Origin: Verrucomicrobiales bacterium | GTDB taxonomy: Bacteria > Verrucomicrobiota > Verrucomicrobiia > Limisphaerales > J093 | DNA: 64,000 bases | Direction of reading: 5' to 3' | Assembly: GCA_037439785.1 (NCBI GenBank) | Contig: JBBIVJ010000001.1 | Span: 33,114-97,113 of the forward strand | Part shown: positions 41,368 through 54,600 of the stretch, piece after piece | How positions within the stretch are numbered: the first letter of the stretch is position 1 | Layout of the letters: every line of letters begins with the position of its first letter | Program-made: the position numbers and the translations under genes | Notes under the pieces: model-generated | What the model saw: the letters and a program-made list of their open reading frames with translations, nothing else | What the model was told of the DNA's origin: nothing | The model's database searches: none

Positions 41368-42450
41368 ATGAGCATCAACCGTTTGACCACCGTCGTGGCC
41401 GGGGTCTTGCTGAGCGTCTCCGCCGCCTCCCTCCACGCCGCCGAGCCCCCCGCGGCCGCGCCGCCCAAGACTTACCCGACCCTGGGCCAGGTCGAGCGGC
41501 TGGCGCCGGAACTGGACACCCTGATCGCCCCCGATGCCCAAATTGAAAAACTGGCCGGCGGCTTCGAGTGGGCCGAGGGTCCGGTCTGGGACAAAAAGAC
41601 TGACACGCTGCTGTTCTCCGACGTGCCGCGCAACGTGGTCTTCCAATGGCGCGAGGGGGTGGGCACGCGTGACTACCTTTACCCCAGCGGCTACACCGGC
41701 CCCCGCGCCCGCGAGGGCGTGGACCGTGAACAGGGCTCGAACGGTTTGACCTTTGATGCGCGGGGCCGGCTGGTGCTTTGCCAGCACGGGGACCGCCGCG
41801 TGGCCCGCCTCGAGGGGGGCCGCTTCCACACCCTGGCCGAATTTTACCTCCACCGCCGTTTCAACAGCCCCAACGACCTGGTGTACGCCGCCAACGGCAA
41901 CCTCTACTTCACCGATCCCCCCTACGGCCTGCCGCGGGACCCCGCCAACCCGGACCGCCGGCTCGGGCAGGAGCTGCTCTTCAGCGGCGTGTACCTGCTC
42001 CGGCCCTCCGGCGCCGTCGAGGCGCTGGTCAAGGACCTGACCTTCCCCAACGGCGTGGCGCTCTCCCCCGGGGGCAAAATCCTCTACGTCGCCGTCTCCG
42101 ATCCCCAAAACCCGGTCATCATGTCCTACCCGGTGCGGGAGGACGGCACCCTGGACCCCGGCATTGTCTTCTTCGATGCCCGCCCGCTGGCCCGGGCCGG
42201 TCGCAAGGGCCTGCCCGACGGCCTCAAGGTGGATTACCAGGGCAACGTCTTCGCCACCGGCCCCGGCGGGGTGCTCGTGCTCTCCCCGCTGGGCAAGCTG
42301 CTCGGCATCATCAACACCGGCGAGGCCACCGCCAACTGCGCCTTCGGTGACCCGGACGGTTCCCGCCTCTACTTGACCGCCGACAGGTATCTCTGCCGCA
42401 TCCAGACCCTCACCCGCGGCCAGGGGCAGTGGCGGGTGAAAAAACCCTGA
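41368..42450 (+). CDS. SMP-30/gluconolactonase/LRE-family protein, secreted
   Basis: Signal peptide. EGPVWD, LLFSDVP, SNGLTFD, FNSPNDLV, NLYFTDPPYG, PNGVALSP, PDGLKVD motifs. Confidence 0.85.
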   Translation: MSINRLTTVVAGVLLSVSAASLHAAEPPAAAPPKTYPTLGQVERLAPELDTLIAPDAQIEKLAGGFEWAEGPVWDKKTDTLLFSDVPRNVVFQWREGVGTRDYLYPSGYTGPRAREGVDREQGSNGLTFDARGRLVLCQHGDRRVARLEGGRFHTLAEFYLHRRFNSPNDLVYAANGNLYFTDPPYGLPRDPANPDRRLGQELLFSGVYLLRPSGAVEALVKDLTFPNGVALSPGGKILYVAVSDPQNPVIMSYPVREDGTLDPGIVFFDARPLARAGRKGLPDGLKVDYQGNVFATGPGGVLVLSPLGKLLGIINTGEATANCAFGDPDGSRLYLTADRYLCRIQTLTRGQGQWRVKKP

Positions 42451-42459
42451 GCCCCCGCG

Positions 42460-43017
42460 GTGGCCGCCGACCTTTTCGCCCGCCTCCAGCCGCTGTGGCA
42501 ACCCTTCGGCCTGCCGGCCCTGGGCCCGCAAGCCCGCCCCGGCACCTTGCCCCCGTCCACGCTCCAGAACCAACTGGTCGACCTCGCCCCGGCCGCTTCT
42601 CTGGACCCGCGCCGACGCCAGCTCCTGCTCGGCAGCTTTTGCTGGTGGCATGACCACCTGGAGGCCGCCCACACCTTCGCCCAGGCGATACCCGACGCCG
42701 ACGGCAGTTACCTCCACGCCCTGATGCACCGACGGGAACCGGACTTCGCCAATGCTGCCTACTGGTTTCGACGGGTGGGCGCCCATCCTCTCACCGCCGC
42801 CCTGACTGCGCGGGTCGGTCCGTGGCTACACGAACGCGGCGAAACCGCCCTGGCCGGGCGCCTGTTGCCGGGCGGGAGCTGGGATAAATTCGCCTTCCTT
42901 GATCTCTGCGCGGAATGCCTGAACCGGCCGGCGGGGGACGACCAGGTCCGGCTGGCCTGCGAACTTCAGGCGCTGGAGTTCCAGCTCTGGCTGCACCACC
43001 TCACCGGCGCCGGCTGA
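42460..43017 (+). CDS. hypothetical protein
   Basis: 185 aa. GTG start 10 nt after the previous stop. No motif recognised. Composition looks coding (helical, W/H-rich). Confidence 0.5.
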   Translation: MAADLFARLQPLWQPFGLPALGPQARPGTLPPSTLQNQLVDLAPAASLDPRRRQLLLGSFCWWHDHLEAAHTFAQAIPDADGSYLHALMHRREPDFANAAYWFRRVGAHPLTAALTARVGPWLHERGETALAGRLLPGGSWDKFAFLDLCAECLNRPAGDDQVRLACELQALEFQLWLHHLTGAG

Positions 43018-43097
43018 GCACCTGCCGGCCGCACCGACCTTGTCAACCCCGCTGCCCGGCCGGTACAACACGCCGGGCGCTCCGGGCGTCCGCTCGC

Positions 43098-44051
43098 ATG
43101 AAAAACCTGGTCACCGGCGGCGCCGGCTTCATCGGTTCCCACCTGGTCGAGGCCCTGGTCCACGCGGGGGAGCGCGTGGTGGTGCTGGACGACCTGAGCA
43201 GCGGCTCGCGCGCGAACCTGGCCGGCCTGCCCGCCGGCGCGCCGGTCGAATTCCTCGAGGGCAGCATCACCGACCCGGCCACCGTGCGCCGGGCCGTGGC
43301 CGGATGCCAACGGGTCTTCCACCTGGCGGCTTGGGTGTCCGTCCCGCAATCGGTCGCCGAGCCGTTGCAAACCCACCGGTGCAACGTCCACGGCACCCTC
43401 GGGGTGCTCACCGCCGCCCGTGCGGCCGGGGTGGACCGCGTGGTGCTGGCCTCCTCCTCGGCGGTTTACGGGGACGGCCCGGAACCGCGCAAACACGAAG
43501 CCCTGCCCCCGCGACCGCTCTCCCCCTACGCCCTGCAAAAATACACCGCCGAGCAGTACGGCCGGCTCTTTCACGCCCTCCACGGCCTGGAGACGGTGGC
43601 CCTGCGGTTTTTCAACGTCTTCGGCCCCCGTCAGCCCGCCGACTCCCCCTACGCCGGTGTGATTGCGCGGTTCTGCGCGGCGTTCCAGGCCGGACGCCCC
43701 CCCACCGTGTACGGCGACGGCCGGCAGATGCGCGATTTCGTGTACGTCACCGATGTGGTGCGGGCCCTGCAGGCCGCGGCGACCGCGCCCGGCGACCGCG
43801 TGGCCGGCCGGGTCTTCAACGTGGGCAGCGGCCACAGCCGCACCTTGCTGGAGCTGCTCGCGGCCTTGCAGCAACTCACCGGCCGCCACCTGGAACCCCG
43901 CTTCGCCCCCGCCCGGCCCGGCGACATCCGCCACTCCTGCCCGGACCTGACCGCCATCCAGGAGACGCTGGGTTGGCGCGCTGAGGTGCCGTGGGAGGAA
44001 GGGCTGGGCCGCACCCTGGCCCACAACCGCGGGACCGCGACCGTGACCTGA
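43098..44051 (+). CDS. NAD-dependent nucleotide-sugar epimerase/dehydratase (SDR family)
   Basis: An internal ATG gives 317 aa. GGAGFIGSHL Rossmann motif, catalytic SSSAVYG ... YALQK (YxxxK), RFFNVFGPRQ. Confidence 0.9.
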   Translation: MKNLVTGGAGFIGSHLVEALVHAGERVVVLDDLSSGSRANLAGLPAGAPVEFLEGSITDPATVRRAVAGCQRVFHLAAWVSVPQSVAEPLQTHRCNVHGTLGVLTAARAAGVDRVVLASSSAVYGDGPEPRKHEALPPRPLSPYALQKYTAEQYGRLFHALHGLETVALRFFNVFGPRQPADSPYAGVIARFCAAFQAGRPPTVYGDGRQMRDFVYVTDVVRALQAAATAPGDRVAGRVFNVGSGHSRTLLELLAALQQLTGRHLEPRFAPARPGDIRHSCPDLTAIQETLGWRAEVPWEEGLGRTLAHNRGTATVT

Positions 44052-44057
44052 GGCCGC

Positions 44058-44960
44058 TCAACGCAGCCGGTCCCACACCAGCAACCCCATCACCGCCGGC
44101 AGGTACAGCACCGAGGCCAGAAACAGCCCGCGCGCGCTGGCCCGCGCCAGGCTGCGCGCAAACCACACCGCCAGCCCCAGCATGGCCGCCCCCAACACCA
44201 ACGCTCCCGCCAGGTACGCCACCCCGGCCACCCCCAGCACAAACAGGCTCAGGCTCACCACCCACAGGCCCAGCGCATGGCTGATGCTTTGCAGCCCGGT
44301 CCGCTCCCCGTCCGGGTCCACCACCGGCAACATCTTCAGCCCGGCCCGCGCATAGTCCTCCCGGTACAGCCAGGCGATGGCCAGAAAATGCGGGACCTGC
44401 CAGAAAAACTGGAGCGCGAACAGGGCCCACCCGCCGGCGGAGACCTCCCCCGCCGCCGCCGCCCAGCCGATCAACGGCGGCATGGCCCCGGGCACCGCCC
44501 CCACGATGGTGTTGAGGGTCGAAACCCGTTTCAGCGGCGTGTACACGCCCAGATAAAGGGCCAGCGTCACCGCGCCCAGCGCCGCGGCCAGCAGAGAACC
44601 GCCCACGCACAGCCAGGCCAGCCCCCCCACCGCCAGCACGGCCCCGCCCAGCAGCGCCCCGCTCGGCGACACCCGCCCGGACGGCAGGGGACGCGAGCGG
44701 GTACGTTCCATCAGGGCGTCGGTGTCACGCTCCAGGTACTGGTTGAGCGCGGCAGCGCCTCCCGCCAGCAGGGCGGTGCCGCCCAGCGTGTGCAGCGCCC
44801 GCCACGCGTCCACCGGCCCCGGTGAACCCAGGTAGTACCCCGCGGCGGTGGTGAGCACCACCAGGGCATTGAGCCGTGCCTTGACCAGCTCGGTCAGCAC
44901 GGTCACCGCGGACTTGTCCGCGACCGGTTCACTCAACGAAGTTGCCATCAACGTCTGCAT
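44058..44960 (-). CDS. ctaB: protoheme IX farnesyltransferase (heme O synthase)
   Basis: An internal ATG gives 300 aa. UbiA-type motif NQYLERDTDALMERTRSRPLPSG and multiple TM helices. It starts 26 nt after ctaA. Confidence 0.9.
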   Translation of the reverse strand: MQTLMATSLSEPVADKSAVTVLTELVKARLNALVVLTTAAGYYLGSPGPVDAWRALHTLGGTALLAGGAAALNQYLERDTDALMERTRSRPLPSGRVSPSGALLGGAVLAVGGLAWLCVGGSLLAAALGAVTLALYLGVYTPLKRVSTLNTIVGAVPGAMPPLIGWAAAAGEVSAGGWALFALQFFWQVPHFLAIAWLYREDYARAGLKMLPVVDPDGERTGLQSISHALGLWVVSLSLFVLGVAGVAYLAGALVLGAAMLGLAVWFARSLARASARGLFLASVLYLPAVMGLLVWDRLR

Positions 44961-44986
44961 GATTTCGCCCGCCCCACGCTGCCCGC

Positions 44987-46192
44987 TCAAGCCGCCGACG
45001 TCCAGACCGGCGCCGGCCGGGCCGGCGTCGGTGACGCGGCTGTCTGCACCGGGGCGGCCTCCCGCGGCCGGCGCGAGGACCAGACGCCCAGCCCACCTCC
45101 GACTGCCAACAACAACGACCCCACCAGCACATGCAGGGTGGCAATGTCCGCGGCCTTGTTGGACCAGACCGTCCACGCCCCCAGCCCGAACTGCACCAGG
45201 ACCAGCCCCAGCCACAGTGCCGCCCCCCGCCGCACCGGATGTTCCCGCGGCAGGTGCCGGCGCGCCCGGCCCACCACCACAACCACCACCCCCAGCACCG
45301 CCACCGCGCCCAGCCGGTGGCTCATGTGCAACACCACATCCGCGGCCTCGATCGGTCGGGCGGCGTGGACTTCGATCCGCTGACGGTTGTAGCCGGCAAG
45401 GGACTCGGCGTCCAGCCGCGGCCAGAGCCGGCCGTGGGCGAGGGGAAAATCCGGCACCGCCAACCCGGCGTGGCGATGCCGCATCGAAGCGCCCAGGACC
45501 AGTTGCGCCACCACCAGGCCGAAGCCGATCCACACGAGCCGTTGGAGCCCTCGCGGCACCGCCGCCGGGAGTGCCCGCCGCCAGCCGGCACCGGTCCCCA
45601 ACGCCACCAGCACGAGCAGCAACAGGAAGCCCTGGGCCAGCACCGCGTGGACGACACCCAGTTCATCGGCCAGCCACACCACGCGCAAGCCGCCCAGCAG
45701 TCCCTGGACCTGCACCAGGGCCAGGGCCAGCCAGCCCAGCGCCGGCAGGGGACGCGGCGCGGGGGCGTTGCGCGCCCACACCGCCGCGGCCAGCAACACC
45801 ACCCCGCCAATGCCCGCCAGGAAGTGCCCGGCCCCCTTCAGTTCCGGCTTGAAGCCCACCAACGCCAGCCCCGCCAGCAGTTCCACCCCGCCCAGGATCG
45901 CCAGCGGACGCCGGGCCGGGGCGCCCCCCAGCCAGCGGGTCAAAAACACCACCAACGTGCCCACCACCGTCGCCCACAGCCGGTGGGTGTGTTCGTAAAA
46001 GATGCCCCCCTGCCAGAAATGGAAGGGCAGGGCAAACATGTTGTAGCCGTAGCTGGTGGGCCAGTCCGGCACTGCCAGCCCGGCCCCACGGCTGGTCACC
46101 AGACCGCCGATGGAAATCAGGCCCAGGGTGGCCGCCACGCAGATCCAGGCGTAGCGATGGAGGGCGCGCGACGCGGGAGCAGCATCCGACAT
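44987..46192 (-). CDS. ctaA: heme A synthase (COX15/CtaA family)
   Basis: 401 aa polytopic membrane protein. GAGLAVPDWPTSYG and conserved His-containing helices (EHTHRLWA, HMSHRLGA, HVLVG). Confidence 0.85.
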   Translation of the reverse strand: MSDAAPASRALHRYAWICVAATLGLISIGGLVTSRGAGLAVPDWPTSYGYNMFALPFHFWQGGIFYEHTHRLWATVVGTLVVFLTRWLGGAPARRPLAILGGVELLAGLALVGFKPELKGAGHFLAGIGGVVLLAAAVWARNAPAPRPLPALGWLALALVQVQGLLGGLRVVWLADELGVVHAVLAQGFLLLLVLVALGTGAGWRRALPAAVPRGLQRLVWIGFGLVVAQLVLGASMRHRHAGLAVPDFPLAHGRLWPRLDAESLAGYNRQRIEVHAARPIEAADVVLHMSHRLGAVAVLGVVVVVVGRARRHLPREHPVRRGAALWLGLVLVQFGLGAWTVWSNKAADIATLHVLVGSLLLAVGGGLGVWSSRRPREAAPVQTAASPTPARPAPVWTSAA

Positions 46193-46224
46193 GGGCCCAG
46201 TCTAGGCGCTCGGTCCGGGGAATC

Positions 46225-46257
46225 AAAAAACCGCTGCCCCCGGTCGGGCGGCAGCGG
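46225..46257 (-). terminator. rho-independent terminator downstream of the blue-copper protein gene
   Basis: 8-bp stem ccgctgcc/ggcagcgg (46231-46238 and 46250-46257). On the minus strand it is followed by T6 (A6 at 46225-46230). It lies 29 nt after the TAA at 46286 and before the ctaA start. Confidence 0.65.
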
Positions 46258-46285
46258 CGGGGAAGATTCCCGGCTCGGGCCGGGA

Positions 46286-46984
46286 TTACTTGGCTTCGAG
46301 GGTGAAGTTGACCTCTTTCTTGTCCGAGTCGGTCACGGTGATCTGTTGTGTGGCCTCGCCGGCCTTGAGGTGGTAGGCCACCAGGGTGTAGGTGCCGGCG
46401 GGCAGATCGCTCGGGAGCTTGAACTTCCCGTCCTTGTCGGTGACCGCAAACCACTGGTGGTCCATCACGCCCACGTAGGCAAACATCCAGGGGTGGACGT
46501 CGCACTTGATGCGCACCAGCACCTCGCGGTTGGCGAAGCTCTTTTCGGTCACCATCCCCTGCACCGGCTGGCCGATGTTGAATCCCTTGTTGCCGGCCAC
46601 CTTCGGTGTGGCGTGCACGTTGTGCATCAACGGGTCGGAGTTCTTGATCTTGAAGGGCTGGTTGGTCCGCACCCCCATCACGTACGGTACGAAGATGCAG
46701 TTGATCTGGTCCAGTAACGGTGTGTCGGAGGGCGGCTTCGAACCGGGCGGAGTTTCCTTGATGTACACAAACACGTTGGCCAGGCCGCCGTCCGGGGACA
46801 CCACGTAATGGCGCGTGAAGGCGTCCTGGGTGTGGAGTTTGCCACACAGGGCGTCGAACAGGATTTTCCTTTCCGGCGGCGGGGTGCCCTTGAGGGTCAC
46901 CCGGCCACTGATGTCCGCCGCGTGGAGGGGGAGCACCACGCCGACAGCCAGCAACGATGAGGTCAGCAGGGGAGGCAGGTTCAT
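46286..46984 (-). CDS. type-1 (blue) copper protein: cupredoxin domain plus a C-terminal beta-sandwich
   Basis: An internal ATG (MNLPPLLTSSLLAVGVVLPLHA, signal peptide). Candidate copper ligands: His in DPLMHNVHA and C-x2-H-x2-M in KCDVHPWM. The C-terminal DKDGKFKLPSDLPAGTYTLVAYH is carboxypeptidase-regulatory-like. Confidence 0.75.
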   Translation of the reverse strand: MNLPPLLTSSLLAVGVVLPLHAADISGRVTLKGTPPPERKILFDALCGKLHTQDAFTRHYVVSPDGGLANVFVYIKETPPGSKPPSDTPLLDQINCIFVPYVMGVRTNQPFKIKNSDPLMHNVHATPKVAGNKGFNIGQPVQGMVTEKSFANREVLVRIKCDVHPWMFAYVGVMDHQWFAVTDKDGKFKLPSDLPAGTYTLVAYHLKAGEATQQITVTDSDKKEVNFTLEAK

Positions 46985-47288
46985 GTTAACGACTTCGACC
47001 ACAGGTTTCGGTTCTCAAATCACGGCCAGTCTAGCAGCCCTCCCCCGCCCCGGCAAGCCCGGCCGCCCGAGCGGCTGGGCGGAGGCTTGACCTGCATCAA
47101 AGACAGCGCGGCGGGGACTTGCCCGAAGCATTTCGCCCGCTCCGTTGGCCGGCAGAGCGCATGACCGGGCCTTCGAGCGGGACGCCCCCAAGCCGATGGT
47201 CGGGGTCCTCACCCTGCTCCACTGCGTCCCCCTCGCCTCCGGGGCTCGCAGCCGCGCCGCGGGCCGGGGGCTGCGCCCCGCCGCGGGC

Positions 47289-49457
47289 TCAGAAGCGGTA
47301 GCGCAGGGTCGAGTACACCCAGTGCGTGTCGTAATCCCGCCGCCCGCCGGCGAGGGTGTCGTGGCTGGTGAAGAAGCCGTAGCGGAGGGCCAGTTGGACG
47401 CGCGCGGAGAGGCGGCGGATCAGGCCGAGGGTAAGGCCGTGTTCCTCCGCGCCGGCCCCGTACGGCTGGCCGGCCAGGGAGTTGTCCGCGTAGTTGTCCG
47501 CCCGGTAGTAAACGTATTGCGCCTCCAGGTCGGTCCGGTCATCGCAGGCCAGGCCCAGGGTGAGCTGGGCGGTCCAGTAATCGTTTTCGGCATCCTGTAC
47601 GGCGGGCAGGAACGACGAGGCAGGCGTCTCGGTGCGGTCGGTCACGTAACTGAGCGAACCCAAGACGTAGAGCCGCGCCCAGGGCACCCAACTGAGGCTG
47701 CCGCTGCCGATGTGGCTGGTGAGTTCGGCCGATTCGAGGGAGGCGCGGCCGTCGGCGCGGGTCTCGATGCGGGACAGTTGCAGGTCGTAGCGGCCGACCA
47801 GGGTGAGATTGGCGCGGGGCCGCCAGGTGAGGCGGAAGTTGAGGTCGTCGGTGGTGAAGTCCTGGGCGCGGAGGTAGGCGGGCAGGCGGTTGATCGAGTC
47901 GGGGGTGTTGGGGGTCGAGTCGCGGTCGTGGTCGTAATCGTTGTTGCGAATCTTGTGGTAGTACTCGGCGCCGAAGCTCAGGCGTCGGCGGGGATACCAG
48001 TTGGCGCCCACGGTGTATTTCTGGGCGTGGCGCTGGTCGTCGGTGGAGCGAAACAGCACGGCGGTGGCGGTGGTGCGGTTGTCCAGCCGTTCGTCGAGGT
48101 CGCCGTTGCCCTGGAGCCACCAGCCGCGGGCGTAGAAGACCCAGTTGGTCAGGCCGGTGTAGCGGACCTCGAGCGCCTCCGACACGTCCAGCAGTCGGCG
48201 TTCGCTGGCGGCGGCGTAGGCCGAGGGGCTGAAGGGGGCGGCGGGCGCATCGAAGAACGCCTCGCTGTCGGTCTGGCGGCTCTCGATCCGGACCGCGGGC
48301 ACCAGCACCAGGCGGTCGGTCAGTTGCGCCAGCAGATTCAGGTTGCCCACGTGCTGGCGCAGGAGCGCACCGCCCGCCAGCCGGTCGAAGGTGCCGATGG
48401 CGGGGTAGCGTTGGGCGAGGTCGGGATCAAAGACCGAACCAAACACCCGGTAGCCGGCAAGCTCGGAAGTCAGGTCGGTGTAACCATAGGCGGCAGTGAA
48501 TTTGAAGCGGTCCCCCAGCGGGGTCTCGGTGGTGGCATGGGCGCCGAACAGGTCCGCGGTGGTTCGGTCGCGCTGGGTCACGCGCCGGTCCAGGGCCGGG
48601 CCCTCGCCGGGAAAGCGCCGCATCCAGCGGGCCTCGTCGTTGTCCTGGCGCTCATAGCGGAAGCCGACGCCCACGCGCGTGCCCGCCAGGGTGTGGGCCA
48701 GGTCGGCCATTACCAGATCGCGCACGCGGTCCAGGTCCAGCAGCGTCGGCACGATATTGCGGGTCCCCAGGCCGCCGGTCTGGCCGGTCAGCCCCCAACT
48801 GGTCGAGTCCTTCTGCCCCTCCCGCTCGCGGTGGGAGTACCGCAGGGTGAAGTGGGGCACCTTGGGCAGCCGCAGCCCGGCCTCGAGGGTGAACTCCCGC
48901 TCGTCGAAGGCCAGCGCGCCCGAGTACAGGTCATACCAGCCCTGCGTGGGGGGAAACCAGCCCCCCGCCGGGTCGGACCACTGGCGGAACTCCCGGTACC
49001 CGAACCGCACAAAGCCCTTCTCAGGCAGGTTCAGGTCAAACCGCAGCGCGTAGTCGTGGTTGTCAAAAATCCCGCGGCCGTCCAGTTGGAGCAGGCCGTC
49101 GCCGCCCACCGGCCGCTCGTAGTGGAAACTCTCGACGCCCCCAAACGCGCCGTCCGGCTGCCCGGTCCGCTGCTGGTAGGCGGCGCGGCGGCCGTTGAAA
49201 AAGGTCCCCCCCACGCCGAACTCGATCCAGTTCCGCGGCTCGCCCGCCCCGGCGGGGGCGGCTTCCGCGGCCGGTTCTTCCGTGGCCGGTTCGCCGGCCG
49301 GCGCTTCGGCGGGCTCGGTCCTGGTCGGCTCCGGGGGCGAGGCCGGCGGCGCAGCCGGGGGCGCTTCGGCTGCGCACACGCCCATTGTGAGCGGCAGCGC
49401 CCACAGGGCGGGCACCAGGCGGCGGGGCAGCGGAGCGGGGGGAGTGGGGGGGTTCAT
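47289..49457 (-). CDS. large outer-membrane beta-barrel protein, MtrB/PioB-like by size and context
   Basis: An internal ATG (Met58) gives 722 aa. Signal peptide, then a P/A/E-rich linker, then a strand-like alternating pattern to the end. The terminal residues are YSTLRYRF. GGAGG lies in the 14-nt gap after the cytochrome stop. The family assignment is not verified by search. Confidence 0.65.
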   Translation of the reverse strand: MNPPTPPAPLPRRLVPALWALPLTMGVCAAEAPPAAPPASPPEPTRTEPAEAPAGEPATEEPAAEAAPAGAGEPRNWIEFGVGGTFFNGRRAAYQQRTGQPDGAFGGVESFHYERPVGGDGLLQLDGRGIFDNHDYALRFDLNLPEKGFVRFGYREFRQWSDPAGGWFPPTQGWYDLYSGALAFDEREFTLEAGLRLPKVPHFTLRYSHREREGQKDSTSWGLTGQTGGLGTRNIVPTLLDLDRVRDLVMADLAHTLAGTRVGVGFRYERQDNDEARWMRRFPGEGPALDRRVTQRDRTTADLFGAHATTETPLGDRFKFTAAYGYTDLTSELAGYRVFGSVFDPDLAQRYPAIGTFDRLAGGALLRQHVGNLNLLAQLTDRLVLVPAVRIESRQTDSEAFFDAPAAPFSPSAYAAASERRLLDVSEALEVRYTGLTNWVFYARGWWLQGNGDLDERLDNRTTATAVLFRSTDDQRHAQKYTVGANWYPRRRLSFGAEYYHKIRNNDYDHDRDSTPNTPDSINRLPAYLRAQDFTTDDLNFRLTWRPRANLTLVGRYDLQLSRIETRADGRASLESAELTSHIGSGSLSWVPWARLYVLGSLSYVTDRTETPASSFLPAVQDAENDYWTAQLTLGLACDDRTDLEAQYVYYRADNYADNSLAGQPYGAGAEEHGLTLGLIRRLSARVQLALRYGFFTSHDTLAGGRRDYDTHWVYSTLRYRF

Positions 49458-49471
49458 GGCGACCTCCGGAT

Positions 49472-50323
49472 TCAGTACCGCAGCGAGGAACTGACCTGGG
49501 AGCCGTGCACGGCTTCGTGGCAGCCGGCGCTCCAGCAGGTACCCTGGGACAACAACAACGCGTGATCGAACCCGCCGATGAGCACTTCGCCGCCGGGGCG
49601 GCGTTCGGCGATGTGGCACTTCAGGCACAACGAGGCATTGCGCTGGGTGAGCAGTTTGGCGTTCACCGAGCCGTGCGGCTGGTGGCAGGTGGTGCAGCCT
49701 TCGCGCATGGCTTCGTGCTCGAAGACATGCGGGCCCCGCTGGGTGTCATGGCATTCGGTGCACCCCTCCGAAGCCGATACCAGCGAGGTGCCGACACCCT
49801 TCACCGCCGGGCCGCGATGGGGATCGTGGCACTCCTGACAGGTCATCCGTCCCTCCGGTACCGGATGATGGTGGGGCAGGTTGAACGCGGCCCGCGTGGC
49901 CAGATGGCACTGGTAACAGGTCTGGGGGTCCTGGCGCGGATTCAGAATGGTACCCGGTTCGCCGCCCGACTCGCTGTGGAGGCTGCCCGGCCCGTGGCAG
50001 GACTCGCAGCCCACATCAAGGGCGTTCGGCCCCCGCGCCTGGAGGTTCGCATGCACCGCGGTCCGGAACTCCCGCACCAGCTCCTCGTGGCAGTCCGCAC
50101 AGGCGGCGGTGCCGACAAAACTGGCGCCGGGGATGGTCGGCGGCGCCACCACCGTCCGGCTCAACGTGCCGCAGGCGATCAGGCCGACCAGCGGGCCGGC
50201 CCAAAGCCCCCAGCGCAGGCACGTCAACCAGCGGCGGCGGGAGGTGGAAGCGGAGAGACCGTGCGGGGTGGGTTCGGCGCGTTCAGTCATAAGAAACGCT
50301 GGTCTGCGCCCCCCAGAGACCAT
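49472..50323 (-). CDS. octaheme c-type cytochrome, MtrA/DmsE-like, predicted lipoprotein
   Basis: Seven CXXCH motifs (CADCH, CESCH, CYQCH, CQECH, CTECH, CTTCH, CLKCH) plus CWSAGCH (CX4CH). CTTCHQPHGSVNAKLL and a terminal CHEAVHGS. RRR plus a hydrophobic stretch plus an LIAC lipobox. Start is ATG 50323 or ATG 50290 (the track starts at TTG 50332). Confidence 0.85.
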   Translation of the reverse strand: MVSGGRRPAFLMTERAEPTPHGLSASTSRRRWLTCLRWGLWAGPLVGLIACGTLSRTVVAPPTIPGASFVGTAACADCHEELVREFRTAVHANLQARGPNALDVGCESCHGPGSLHSESGGEPGTILNPRQDPQTCYQCHLATRAAFNLPHHHPVPEGRMTCQECHDPHRGPAVKGVGTSLVSASEGCTECHDTQRGPHVFEHEAMREGCTTCHQPHGSVNAKLLTQRNASLCLKCHIAERRPGGEVLIGGFDHALLLSQGTCWSAGCHEAVHGSQVSSSLRY

Positions 50324-50573
50324 GCAAGACAAAAGGACTCAAGCGAAAAATGCTGGATTCGGCGTTTTACGGGGAATGGGGAGCGCGCAGTCCCGAAGCC
50401 GGCGTCGAGGCGGGATGATTCGGCCGGTCACCCGGCAGGGGCGGGCCGGGCAGGTGGGCGCCGTGCCGCCCCACGCTCAGCTCGGGGCAGCCCGCGAAAA
50501 CGGTTGCCCTGGATATGCCTTTGCTTCACCTTTCCGTCCGGTTCGATTGGGATCACTCAACATCTGGCCAGCC

Positions 50574-51521
50574 ATGAATCCACCCCTGAACCGCCGTCAC
50601 TTCCTTCAAACCGCGGCCGTCACGGCGGCCGCCCTCCCGGTGGGTTTGCCGGCGGAGCCCGTCCCCGGCCTGCCCACCCATCCCCTGCCCCCGCCGCAGG
50701 GGCAGCTCCCCACCGGCCGCATCGGCCCGCGCACCTTCAGCCGGCTGATGCTGGGCGGGAACCTGATCGGCGGCTACGCCCACGCCCGCGACCTCCAGTA
50801 CGTCTCGCACCTGATGCTGCGTTACAACACCGACGCCAAGATCGCCGAGACCCTCGAGCTGGCCGAGACCCACGGCATCAACGCGGTCAACAGTTGGGTG
50901 CGCGACGGTGCGCACCACTTCCAGCGCCACTGGAAACGCGGCGGCAAGATGCAATGGATCGCCCAGGCCCGCCTGGACGAGCGGGGTGGCTTCGACCAGT
51001 TCAAGCAGGCCGCCGACCTCGGCGCGGTGGCCATCCATGCGACCGGCGATACCGCCGACGCACTGGTGCAACGGGGCGAGCTGGACACCCTGGCCCGCAG
51101 CCTCGAGGTCATCCGCGCCCGCGGCTGTCTGGCCGGGATTGCGGCGCACGGCCTGGGCACCATCGTGGCCTGTGAAAAGGCCGGCATCCAACCCGACATC
51201 TACCTCAAAACTTTCCACACCCACGATTACTTCACCGCCCCGCGGCCGGACGAGACCGGCGACCTGGGCCGTTACGACAACTCCTGGTGCAAGGACCCCG
51301 AGGAGGTGGCCGAAGTCATGTTCCGGGTGCGCCAGCCCTGGATTGCCTTCAAGGTCCTCGCGGCGGGGGCCATCGCCCCGGCGCGCGGCTTCCGACACGC
51401 GTTTGAAAATGGCGCCGACTTCATCCTGGTGGGCATGTTTGACTGGCAGATCGAGGAGGACGTGCGCCTGACCCGCGAAATCCTCGCCCACCTCCAGCGC
51501 ACCCGGCCCTGGAGGAGCTGA
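50574..51521 (+). CDS. twin-arginine-signal periplasmic protein of unknown function
   Basis: An internal ATG gives 315 aa. MNPPLNRRHFLQTAAVTAAAL is a TAT-type signal. Alternating beta/alpha character suggests a barrel fold. No catalytic motif recognised. Confidence 0.6.
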   Translation: MNPPLNRRHFLQTAAVTAAALPVGLPAEPVPGLPTHPLPPPQGQLPTGRIGPRTFSRLMLGGNLIGGYAHARDLQYVSHLMLRYNTDAKIAETLELAETHGINAVNSWVRDGAHHFQRHWKRGGKMQWIAQARLDERGGFDQFKQAADLGAVAIHATGDTADALVQRGELDTLARSLEVIRARGCLAGIAAHGLGTIVACEKAGIQPDIYLKTFHTHDYFTAPRPDETGDLGRYDNSWCKDPEEVAEVMFRVRQPWIAFKVLAAGAIAPARGFRHAFENGADFILVGMFDWQIEEDVRLTREILAHLQRTRPWRS

Positions 51522-51610
51522 CACCGCCGCCCCGGCCGTGTCCGGCTCCCGCTGCGGGAAGTACATTCCCCGGGCAGGAAGCCGGGCGAAGTGGAGGGAA
51601 GGCCCGGCCC

Positions 51611-54600
51611 TCAGGGCACCACCACCAGGCGGTAGAACCGCGCCGGCCGGCCGGTCGCGGGATCGGTCCAGCGCAACGTCGGCCCGGTGCTGACGCGGGT
51701 AGCCAACGGTTCCCACGTGCGCAGGTCCTCGGAGACTTCGAGCCGGTAGATCAGACCGGGCACGCTCGTCAATTCGAGCACGACGCCGTCGTCCGGGTTG
51801 AGGGTGACCGACTCCAGCCGCGGCATGTGGGGGTGCAGCACCAGCGTGGCGCGGGCCAGGGCGGCGACTTCATAGCCGTGGTCCCAGGCGACCTGACCCG
51901 CCACGACCTCCAGTTCGAGCGGGGCCGTCCCGCTGGCGGGCAGGGCCAGGAAGGTCAATTCCAGCACCGGGGCATCGAGTGCGGTCCAGGCGGCCGGGCC
52001 GGCAGCGGCGAAGTGCACCGCGCCGGAAGTGGCGTCGGTGCTGAGCAACGTGGTGGCACTGGCGGGAACTGCAGGGCCGGGCGGGGGCGGGTCTGGCGTC
52101 GCAGGTTGGAGGGCGTGGGCGGGGTACTGCAGTTGGAAGCTCAGCCCGGAAAGGCCCTCAGGGGGGTGGACCAGACGCACGCGGACCGTCACGCGTTCTC
52201 CCGGCCAGAGCGCAAGGCGGTCGGCCTCGACGATCAGTGTCGTAACCGGCGCCGCCGCCGGGCGGGGAGCGGCGAGGGTGGGTCGGCCCCGCACCACCCT
52301 CGATGCCCGGCCCGGATCGAGCGGGGCCGGCGCCGGGTCGAGGCCCACGACCACGCGCAGGACCTTGATCACATCGCCCGCATCGAGGCTCTGGCTGGCG
52401 TTGAGGTCGTTGCCGGTGACATCCCATGGGCGGACAGGGTCCAGGAGCGCGATCAGGCGCTGGATCAAGGCGGCGTCGCCGACGTCCAGCGCGTCGTTGC
52501 CGTTGTTGTCGCCGGGCAGGTGGCGGCGGCGGATTTCGACGCTGCCGGGGTCGGCGCCGTTGCCAAAGTCAAGCAGCGCGCCTGAGCGGTCAGCCACGTC
52601 GGCGAGGACGGGGACCAGCTCGGTGGTCAGGGATTGGGGGACGCTGCGGGCGCGCAAGGAGAGGGTGGCCAGCGGAATCGTGCCGGCGGGCAGTTCACTT
52701 CCCGGCAGCGAGAGCGTGGCGCGGACGACGCCGGCTTCCTGCACGTTCACTTCCGTCAGCGCCGCACTCAACGCCGGGGCCTCGGACCAGGTCCAGACCG
52801 GATCGCGGAAACGCTCGGGATCGTACTGGAGCCACAAGGTCAGGCCGCCCACGCCCCCGGAGCTGCGGAAGACCAGGTCGCTGGCCAGCCGACGCCCTTC
52901 CCGCACCGCGGCCGGCTGGCCCGGGGTGAGCAGGCGGGCGGGTTCATACGTCACCCGCACCTCGGCCTCGGCCGTGTTGCCGGCCGGGTCGCGCGCGATG
53001 ACCCGCAGCCGGTTTTCGCCGCGCACCCACCGCAAGCCGGGGCGCTGGAAATGGCCCTCCACCAACGTCAGTTCCCCCATCTCCCGGCCGTTCCAGTACC
53101 AGGTGACGGAGGCCACGGCAACATTGTCCACGACCGTGCCCGCCAGCACAAACCGGTCATCGTCGGTCAGACCCGCGGCGGGCGAAGTCAGCGTCAGCAC
53201 GGGCGGTTCGGTTTCCAGTCCGATCTGGAAACTCTCCAGCCCGACCAGGTCCGCCGGAAAAGAAGGGGGTGCGCCGGCCCCGCCGGTGACCAGCGACAGC
53301 ACGCCGGAAACGCCGGTCTTGCTCCCCGCCCGCAGGGCCGAGACGTAATCCGGCCCACGGGCCGATTCCCACACCCGCATCTGCACATGAGCCAGGGCGC
53401 CGGGCGCCACCCCGGGGATAGCCACCACTCCCCCCACAATGTAACCGGCCGCCGCGCCGGTGCGGAAGGGAACCGCCGCGCCCACCGGCTCGAGGGGGTC
53501 GGGGGTGAGGCCGGCAAACAACTGGGCCAGATAGGCCGGTCCCGCCAGGGGGGTGGTCCCGTCTGCCTCGAATATCGGGGCATCCACGCCGGCCAGGGCG
53601 ACGCGGTTGTTGAAGTGGACCGTGCCGCCCGGCTCGAGCGGGAGCACGCGCACCACGACGGGTTGGGAGACCGCGCTGCCGGCGGCGTTGCGCACCTCGA
53701 CCCAGTAGGTCCCGGCGTTATCCAGTTGCAACGCGGGCCATTCCAGCCGGGCAGTGGTGGCCGCCGGGAGGGGCTGACCGTTGCGGTACCACTGGAAGGT
53801 CAACGGCCCGGCGCCAATGGCGGTGACGGCCAATGCCGCGGTTTCTCCCACCCGTTGTTCGACCCCGCTCGGATGGGCGAGAATTTCGGGAAGCGGCGGG
53901 GGGGCGGTCACGGTGAGCGGCACCGGGGGGCTGCTGGCCTCCCCATAAGGACTGAGCACGCGCACGTGGTAATCGCCGGCGTGTTCCGGCGTCACCGCGG
54001 CCAGGGTGAAGCGGGGCGCGTTGGGGGCGTCAGGCAGGCGGACGTTGTTGTGATACCACTCGAAGGTCAACGGCGGGGTGCCCGCGACTTCCACGGTAAA
54101 GGTGGCCGGCGCCCCCTCGGGGACGCTGACCGGTTGCGGGGGACTCAGAATCTGCGGCGGCACGTTCACCACCAACAGGGCCGGATCGCTGGTCACCGCC
54201 CCCAGGGCGTTGCTCACCCGCACGCGGTAGATGCCGGCCTGTTCGGGCTGAACCTCCGGCAGCCGGAGCACCGGCCCGGTGGCCCCGGGCAGCTCGGTGT
54301 TATTGAACCACCATTGGTAGGCCAGCGGTGACGTGCCCACGGCCTCGACATTCAGCTCGACCGGCTGCCCGGCCAGGACGGCCTGACCAAGCGGCTGCCG
54401 CACAATGCGCGGGGCCGCGGGCAGGATGGTGTAGGTCCCCTCGACCACCGGCGACACCGGGTTGCCCGCGTAGAAAGCCCGGGCCTTCAGTGTGGCCGAT
54501 TCGGTCAGCGCGGTAAGCCCCTCGCTGAGGAGCGGGGCGCCGGCGCCGGGCTCGGAGCCATCCACGGTGTAGCGGATGGCGGCGCCGACCACCGGTGATT

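Follow-up and report, generated by a model that had tools for sequence, protein, structure and literature searches.

What does a blue copper protein do between a multiheme cytochrome and the genes of heme A synthesis? The question is raised by a 64,000-nt stretch of a Verrucomicrobiales genome (assembly GCA_037439785.1, contig JBBIVJ010000001.1, positions 33,114 to 97,113; hereafter the window, meaning the whole stretch analysed), in which all the relevant genes lie on the minus strand: in order of transcription, a multiheme cytochrome gene, an open reading frame (ORF) for a large barrel, a gap of 304 nt, a cupredoxin gene that we call cup, a gap of 93 nt, and the heme A and heme O synthase genes ctaA and ctaB. 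An initial annotation of this DNA had likened these genes to an electron-uptake chain of the iron-oxidiser kind. We arrive at a different assignment, to which we give a probability of roughly 70%: cup would encode a type-1 copper protein of the periplasm, a carrier from which the CuA centre of an aa3-type oxidase receives its electrons. We favour it because of the type-1 site of the protein, the membership of its gene in a heme A/oxidase operon, its place in some phyla between genes for a complex III-like enzyme and those for the oxidase, an oxidase subunit II without a donor domain of its own, and the recurrent fusion of cup homologues to that subunit.

The reading frame of cup runs from 46286 to 47002; with the ATG at 46984 and the stop codon at 46286-46288 it gives 232 residues, beginning with a signal peptide (MNLPPLLTSSLLAVGVVLPLHA/AD) that holds no lipobox cysteine and is predicted from its sequence to be cleaved after LHA. 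The secreted protein with its motifs MHNVHA (H121, H124) and KCDVHPWM (C161, H164, M167), followed on the minus strand by a hairpin, ctaA and ctaB, is as initially annotated. In an alignment of 34 spread members of the family, H121, C161, H164 and M167 were invariant (34 of 34) and H124 only nearly so; C47 and C96 were invariant too and probably form a disulfide. An AlphaFold2 (AF2) model (predicted local distance difference test score, pLDDT, 90.2; predicted template modelling score, pTM, 0.85) brought up amicyanin (E 2.8e-5) and plastocyanin (root mean square deviation, rmsd, 1.8-1.9) in Foldseek, with probability 1.00 for matches including pseudoazurin, as well as CuA domains and AcoP (7z3f, E 1e-3). 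By VIA-align, residues 86-174 of the model reached Z scores of 11-12 to plastocyanin, amicyanin and purple cupredoxin, with rmsd values of 1.7-2.4 over 82-87 residues.

Sequence comparison placed the protein less readily. A search of solved structures with the single sequence found nothing (best E 0.5), and the window protein had no match to Copper-bind (PF00127) or Cupredoxin_1 (PF13473) at E ≤ 1, its one Pfam match being the C-terminal sandwich of CarboxypepD_reg (PF13620; 35.5 bits, cut-off 32.3, over the last 53 residues), a family matched by all 34 aligned members. A profile of the cup family reached amicyanin weakly (E 0.08-0.4) and aligned HNVH and C..HP.M exactly in register with its ligands. 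cup is a cupredoxin by fold and site, outside the Pfam Copper-bind and Cupredoxin_1 sequence families, and the type-1 ligand set of the initial annotation holds up by fold, register and invariance, even though the Pfam cut-offs were not reached. We infer an amicyanin-type copper site formed by H121, C161, H164 and M167, which would bind copper.

The second part of the protein, a small beta-sandwich, had been described as simply fused to the cupredoxin; both parts are present, but not in that arrangement. The matches to the transthyretin-like domain of carboxypeptidase D (1qmu_A, Z 11.7; 5aq0_B, Z 10.9) extend from residue 23 to 232 with about 80 residues aligned, and the cupredoxin matches extend from 86 to 174, so that the model has the cupredoxin nested inside the sandwich, that is, inserted in a transthyretin-like/CarboxypepD_reg domain built from the two flanking segments (Table 1).

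To see where such genes stand, we scanned one genome per species for the locus, which gave 605 pattern matches, 511 of them confirmed, and kept the best-scoring 80 loci, which come from Verrucomicrobiota, Acidobacteriota, Rhodothermales, Omnitrophota, Kryptoniota and others; context counts over these loci rest on tblastn rather than on gene calls. Where at least 1500 nt of downstream sequence were available (71 loci), ctaA or ctaB started within 800 nt downstream of cup on the same strand in 50. The remaining 21 comprised eight with cox genes between cup and cta, five followed by cox or Rieske/cytochrome b genes, and eight with none of these, so that cup was linked to cta, cox or Rieske-cytochrome b genes in 63 of 71. 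Neighbour clusters, built from ORF calls (which missed the cup ORF in 8 of 81 loci, the window included), carried the Pfam domains COX1, COX3, COX4_pro, COX2 and DUF420/CtaM. Six to ten loci had genes for Rieske, cytochrome b and 1003-aa multi-cytochrome c proteins immediately before cup, with a HEAT protein gene also among the preceding genes of this subset. In loci of the Rhodothermales type cup stands before COX1, and cta genes are missing from the locus.

Closer to home, we sampled the window's own order evenly (101 genomes, its own included), comparing gene places by hand; the counts are descriptive, as relatives are not independent. Homologues of cup occurred in 83 genomes, CtaA in 84 and barrel homologues in 79. 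cup and CtaA were together present (79) or together absent (13) in 92 of 101 genomes, with four holding cup only and five CtaA only. In 72 of the 79 genomes with both, cup immediately preceded ctaA in the same orientation, the exceptions being G013, G026, G044, G067, G071, G087 and G097.

The cytochrome and barrel genes behaved otherwise. Searched with tblastn using the window proteins, both were absent from all 80 cup loci, the same loci in which cup stands beside ctaA or ctaB so often. This is the very pattern that the initial annotation had named as one that would refute it. The barrel and cup were only loosely linked in the order sample (both in 68 genomes, cup only in 15, barrel only in 11, neither in 7), and their adjacency was unique to the window genome, occurring in none of the 67 others that hold both; in two of these (G043 and G051) the genes share a contig, 170 kb to 1 Mb from each other. 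L001 (with a cup 91% identical) and L004, the nearest relatives, have retained cup-ctaA-ctaB together with the convergent epimerase gene, but carry different genes upstream, and the 304-nt gap between barrel and cup contains a promoter-like block that is conserved in relatives lacking the pair. The cytochrome/barrel position beside cup looks like an accident of one genome. We accordingly regard as distinctly unlikely a chain in which an MtrAB-like cytochrome/barrel conduit passes electrons to the cupredoxin and on to the aa3 oxidase, as in iron oxidisers, even if the pair and cup are adjacent on one strand here, the window cytochrome is MtrA/DmsE-like (matching DmsE/GSU2203 decaheme families, all below cut-offs), barrel and cup homologues co-occur in two thirds of the order sample, and a general periplasmic carrier could in principle take electrons from such a conduit. 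The iron-oxidiser analogy should be dropped for this locus. The window genome also holds a second, paralogous pair of an MtrA-like cytochrome (53% identical) and barrel (29% identical) at C26:23548-26756, which adjoins no cup. The order-wide barrel search separated two subfamilies, with E values below 1e-120 and around 1e-30 to 1e-50.

In the window genome, where cup is single-copy, the oxidase genes lie apart: an orthologous series coxA-coxC-coxD-(117 aa)-coxB is found on contig C6, where it follows a ribonucleotide reductase gene and has neither cup nor cta beside it, and the Rieske/cytochrome b pair on contig C9. The usual operon is split in this genome, and the cytochrome/barrel pair came to lie upstream of its cup-ctaAB half. 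Subunit II of the aa3 oxidase, 259 residues long, carries the CuA motif CSQLCGNGHSSM but lacks any cytochrome c domain, which implies the need for a separate donor.

The strongest pointer to the probable partner of cup is found in proteins that join the two. Among 50 clusters of longer homologues, 21 had a cup domain fused to the N-terminus of COX2_TM plus COX2, with one further such fusion (P0248) and with P0306 reading as a clean example; some lie on contigs of 60-89 kb, and two are named cytochrome c oxidase subunit II by NCBI/JGI. The copper ligands and the cysteine pair were invariant in 23 of 23 sequences (22 fusions and the window protein), and the fusions keep the CuA motif. The topology of such a fusion fits, since the N-terminus of subunit II is periplasmic. 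For the free-standing protein of the window the fusions are indirect evidence of an association with the CuA subunit. The 50 longer clusters also included eight fusions to extracytoplasmic function (ECF) sigma factors, three proteins with cytochrome c domains, one with a Ser/Thr kinase domain and one with a BlaR1-type domain. A candidate fusion of cup to CtaA (P0315) was rejected, its sequence being a frameshifted read-through.

On the favoured assignment, then, cup belongs to a family that heads the heme A/aa3-oxidase operon, cup-ctaA-ctaB-coxA-coxC-coxD-x-coxB, in Verrucomicrobiota, Acidobacteriota, Omnitrophota, Rhodothermales and others. Its product would be a soluble one-electron carrier, reduced by the quinol-oxidising complex or by the cytochrome c of that complex and oxidised by the CuA centre in subunit II of the aa3-type oxidase, a job that elsewhere falls to soluble cytochrome c or to the fused cytochrome c of caa3 oxidases. 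We also count for it the three long forms with cytochrome c domains and some paralogues beside multicopper oxidase or c-type cytochrome genes. In the window genome the ancestral operon would have been split, cup-ctaA-ctaB staying together and coxA-C-D-B coming to lie on another contig. If the assignment is true, electrons reach the aa3-type oxidase of a large, widespread set of bacteria through a copper carrier, either in place of cytochrome c or alongside it; among the phyla concerned, Verrucomicrobiota, Acidobacteriota and Omnitrophota are dominant in soils and waters, and in some lineages the carrier tethered to subunit II would be a copper counterpart of the caa3 oxidases.

Several observations weigh against it. 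The context counts come from the best-scoring 80 of the 511 confirmed loci, and relatives among them are not independent. PF00127 was matched by 6 of the 34 aligned members, weakly and below cut-off (best E 0.011). Among 40 cup-ctaA-ctaB loci with at least 2.5 kb of further downstream sequence, 21 run on into COX1 and 19 do not, and in 15 of those 19 DUF420/CtaM comes next instead. Five of the 84 CtaA-positive genomes of the order lack cup, two of them with a clean ribH-ctaA junction: G009 and G092 (L089 and L092, one genus) read ribBA-ribH-ctaA-ctaB-COX1 where other Verrucomicrobiota have ribBA-ribH-cup-ctaA, a clean loss which implies that an aa3 oxidase can work without cup. A different CtaA with a Cys pair in the cup-less genomes was ruled out, the loop sequence being the same. 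One orthologue in the same position has lost the His ligands and would be copper-less (P0272; genome G042, L090:1104-1787, plus strand): this 227-aa secreted protein, at the usual spot upstream of ctaA, keeps the sandwich and a degenerate middle domain, but neither the first His motif nor the C-x2-H-x2-M loop (where it reads ...ETCLVYM...), which hints at a scaffold role beyond electron transfer.

Since cup stays with the biogenesis genes when cta and cox are split, the window genome included, a biogenesis role would also fit: cup might be dedicated to giving electrons to, or taking them from, the periplasmic side of the Cys-less CtaA encoded beside it (by an alignment of 31 orthologues, the window CtaA has no Cys pair in its first periplasmic loop), or be another late assembly factor with CtaA, CtaB and CtaM. 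We rate this as unlikely. The close association with ctaA, both in position (within the order and across phyla) and in joint presence or absence, speaks for it, as do the 19 loci and the window genome where cup remains with ctaA-ctaB(-DUF420) while the structural cox genes are elsewhere; further, the phyla given for 'type 1.5' CtaA in PMC8239418 overlap those of cup. The recurrent fusions, however, go to oxidase subunit II and none to CtaA; the two genomes with clean cup loss have the same Cys-less CtaA type and ctaA-ctaB-COX1; the Rhodothermales-type loci do without any cta gene; and a conserved terminator hairpin between cup and ctaA (see below) suggests unequal expression of the two. The potentials of type-1 copper are usually well above that of b-type heme. 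To our knowledge no redox partner of bacterial CtaA is known, and cup is a concrete candidate for it; that cup, besides or instead of feeding the oxidase, is this missing partner and shuttles the electrons of the oxidation of heme O to heme A would explain its closer association with ctaA than with the structural cox genes, although we hold this too to be improbable.

The shared operon with the assembly genes ctaA, ctaB and DUF420/CtaM, and the presence of the cupredoxin-fold chaperone CupA (4f2e, Z 9.1) in the fold list of cup, might also be taken to indicate a copper chaperone comparable to PCuAC, Sco or CtaK, which would load CuA or CuB while the oxidase is being assembled. In PMC9145763 PCuAC is described as cupredoxin-like, and the motifs H(M)X10MX21HXM and CXXXC are given for PCuAC and Sco, respectively; a regular-expression search of the cup protein found neither. 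Its invariant ligands and their spacing are identical to those of amicyanin's electron-transfer type-1 site, and the fusion of an intact site to subunit II mirrors the fused cytochrome c of caa3 oxidases and no chaperone, so that we consider a chaperone very unlikely.

The sigma factor fusions raise the further idea of a periplasmic copper or redox sensor domain, regulatory rather than catalytic. Besides the eight clusters, P0164, P0165 and P0221 join sigma-70 regions 2 and 4 through a membrane segment to a cup domain with its ligands kept, and the single clusters with Ser/Thr kinase and BlaR1-type domains point the same way. The window protein, by contrast, is a signal peptide-bearing protein with no output domain, in the context of an oxidase/heme A operon and not of a regulator pair, and for cup itself a sensor role has very little probability indeed. 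The paralogues with the order ECF sigma-70 (regions 2 and 4), membrane segment, cupredoxin-in-sandwich are P0152, P0164, P0165, P0221, P0274-P0277, P0298, P0311 and P0318; copper ligands were intact in all four that were aligned (P0152, P0164, P0165, P0221), and these proteins could be one-polypeptide sigma/anti-sigma copper or redox sensors.

The features of the locus are collected in Table 1. The assignment of ctaB rests on TIGR01473 (270.6 bits against a cut-off of 210.3) and UbiA (E 1.8e-58).

Table 1. Features of the cup locus, with positions counted in the window
Feature	Position	Strand	Basis
cup gene, secreted 232-aa cupredoxin-in-beta-sandwich protein	46286..46984	-	ORF and translation, homologues, AF2 model, Foldseek/VIA
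Predicted signal peptide, residues 1-22	46919..46984	-	Sequence reading; low pLDDT at residues 1-18
N-terminal sandwich part, residues 23-85	46730..46918	-	Transthyretin-like/CarboxypepD_reg structural matches
Cupredoxin domain, residues ~86-174	46463..46729	-	VIA matches, amicyanin profile alignment
C-terminal sandwich part, residues 175-232	46289..46462	-	Pfam PF13620
Predicted copper ligand codons	H121 46622-46624; C161 46502-46504; H164 46493-46495; M167 46484-46486	-	
GC-rich hairpin and U6, cup-ctaA intergenic	46225..46258	-	RNA fold; recurrence in relatives
Promoter-like block: TTGCCG (47056-47051), 17-nt spacer, TAGACT (47033-47028)	47028..47056	-	Four-sequence alignment
ctaA, heme A synthase	44987..46192	-	Pfam COX15-CtaA, E 5.8e-32
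ctaB, heme O synthase (protoheme IX farnesyltransferase)	44058..44960	-	TIGR01473 and UbiA
Multiheme cytochrome	49472-50332	-	7 CXXCH and 1 CX4CH motifs
Large barrel, 779-aa ORF	47289-49628	-	ORF
NAD-dependent epimerase gene, convergent to ctaB	42915-44051	+	Domain match

Between cup and ctaA the hairpin with T6 reported initially was found again, as a 12-bp stem with one bulge (CCGCUGCC...GGCAGCGG, 46258-46231) and UUUUUU at 46230-46225; for the intergenic RNA of 111 nt the folding energy is -52.1 kcal/mol (z = -2.48). A simple terminator scan of positions 42000-52000 gave six sites, this hairpin among them, where 6.0 +/- 2.3 were expected by chance, and an Rfam search of 44000-50500 found no family at E ≤ 1. 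Counting a hairpin of -10 kcal/mol or lower followed by at least four T between cup and ctaA, we found one in 25 of 52 cup-ctaA loci, including all six closest relatives. In 24 loci a stem CCGC[U/C]G[C/U]GG...CC[G/A]C[A/G]GCGG is found 15-48 nt behind the stop codon of cup, with loops of 3-12 nt and some compensatory changes (CUGUGG/CCACAG, CCGCGG/CCGCGG); the aligned rows were chosen by this motif, so that its invariance there is by construction. In 904 kb of loci the strict form of the stem was counted 19 times behind cup and only twice at other places; the 4.17-Mb window genome has it once. As the loop varies in length, the element is more likely a hairpin in the RNA than an operator for a dimeric protein.

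The initial annotation took this terminator to make ctaAB a separate transcription unit, a claim weakened by the recurrence of the hairpin and by its U-tract ending only 32 nt from the ctaA start codon. That spacing, together with the strongly conserved adjacency of cup and ctaA, suits an internal terminator/attenuator or a 3' stabiliser of the cup message, and ctaAB would be expressed by read-through past it. For the proposed carrier, a conserved internal terminator/attenuator after cup would yield more carrier than of the two biosynthetic enzymes, which would be made by read-through. It is also conceivable that the hairpin does more than terminate transcription, serving for instance in processing or stabilisation. 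The stem sequence CCGCUGCGG...CCGCAGCGG is largely kept (for example L002:904-929, L027:6368-6395, L044:2530-2557, L072:7723-7748), though the cup proteins are only 42-77% identical; in L008, L011 and L015 no U-tract follows the hairpin.

Upstream of cup, the promoter-like block lies about 45 nt before the ATG and is conserved among the window, L001, L003 and L004 despite their differing upstream genes, which suggests that cup is transcribed from a promoter of its own, separately from the barrel gene; a sigma-70 consensus scan of 42000-52000 called no promoter, this block included. About 70 nt upstream of the predicted transcription start of cup stands an inverted repeat TTGA-N6-TCAA, TTGATGCAGGTCAA (47087-47100, minus strand), which reads TTGACGCAGGTCAA in L001 and is not conserved in L003 or L004; we take it to resemble FNR/FixK-type boxes, which would suggest oxygen-responsive control.

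Among characterised cupredoxins, the nearest in fold are amicyanin of Paracoccus (Protein Data Bank, PDB, 1AAC) and plastocyanin/pseudoazurin, whose Greek-key fold cup shares (VIA Z 11.2-11.9; Foldseek E about 1e-5 to 1e-4); with amicyanin it also has in common the ligand pattern HNVH plus C-x2-H-P-x-M, secretion and a single predicted copper site. It differs from amicyanin-type cupredoxins in its marginal sequence similarity, in the insertion of the domain in a sandwich and in the extra invariant Cys pair, and its context is that of heme A and aa3 oxidase, theirs that of methylamine dehydrogenase or photosynthesis. The sandwich itself matches CarboxypepD_reg/transthyretin-like domains (PF13620; PDB 1QMU), but is split by the inserted cupredoxin. 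Sulfocyanin, halocyanin and auracyanin are blue copper carriers of archaeal and Chloroflexus chains, encoded with or near terminal oxidase or complex III-like genes and considered to act in place of cytochrome c; unlike cup, they come from other lineages, have a single domain and are anchored in the membrane. In caa3 oxidases, which have cytochrome c at the C-terminus of subunit II, the immediate donor is tethered to the CuA subunit as in the cup fusions; there, however, the donor is a heme c domain, whereas in the fusions it would be a copper domain at the N-terminus, and the window protein is free-standing.

A parallel in gene context is AcoP, a single-domain protein of the acidophilic iron-oxidation chain with Cyc2, Cyc1 and rusticyanin. 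Unlike AcoP, cup has no conserved link to an outer-membrane cytochrome, has a different architecture and belongs to phyla that are neutrophilic and rich in heterotrophs. Cupredoxin genes in oxidase operons are already known: according to two reports (bioRxiv 10.1101/2020.03.01.968255; PMC8239418), the AcoP gene, also named 'cup', of the rus operon of Acidithiobacillus ferrooxidans stands before coxB, with coxA, coxC, coxD and ctaA/ctaB-type genes, and so within an oxidase/heme A operon like cup here. PMC8239418 describes AcoP as membrane-bound, whereas the window protein is predicted to be soluble and secreted. What appears to be new is the nested architecture of the cup family, its size, its phyletic spread, its fixed place ahead of ctaA and its fusions to subunit II; our full-text search of the literature outside subscription journals found no paper on the cup family, the nested architecture or the subunit II fusion.

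The family is large: 3533 of 3818 candidates of similar length belonged to it at E ≤ 0.001, and representatives of 50%-identity clusters numbered 10702 at E ≤ 1e-3, 5538 at 1e-10 and 866 at 1e-30. Source names of the homologues are mostly 'hypothetical' or 'carboxypeptidase regulatory-like', many members being named in public records after the CarboxypepD_reg domain alone. Because Pfam is blind to the cupredoxin and the records carry such names, respiratory reconstructions of these phyla probably miss cup. The ESM Atlas clusters nearest to cup are named 'Blue (Type 1) copper domain protein', so that the copper domain is already visible to some databases.

A few further observations concern single loci. 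The eight cup loci linked to none of the above genes are heterogeneous, with a twin-arginine translocation (TAT) multicopper oxidase, c-type cytochromes, a DsbA-like and MauE pair, or unrelated genes nearby. At L014:633-3872 the family member is followed by a TAT-exported multicopper oxidase; in an Omnitrophota metagenome-assembled genome (L068:5664-7630) the genes ahead of the family member encode a DsbA-like thioredoxin and a MauE homologue, disulfide-forming proteins that are found in amicyanin/methylamine clusters too. In G053 (L087, C4:22000-29000; genome 70% complete) cup and the adjacent ctaA contain in-frame TGA codons and frame breaks; recoding of TGA was rejected in favour of frameshifts, joint gene decay or assembly error. 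Finally, the interval between coxD and coxB on contig C6 (L086:6278-6631, minus strand, P0271) encodes a small membrane protein of about 110 aa with no Pfam match, which carries a CATCFG motif after a signal-like start; a cluster of like size and position (representative L033:13240-13569) recurs in 12 related loci.

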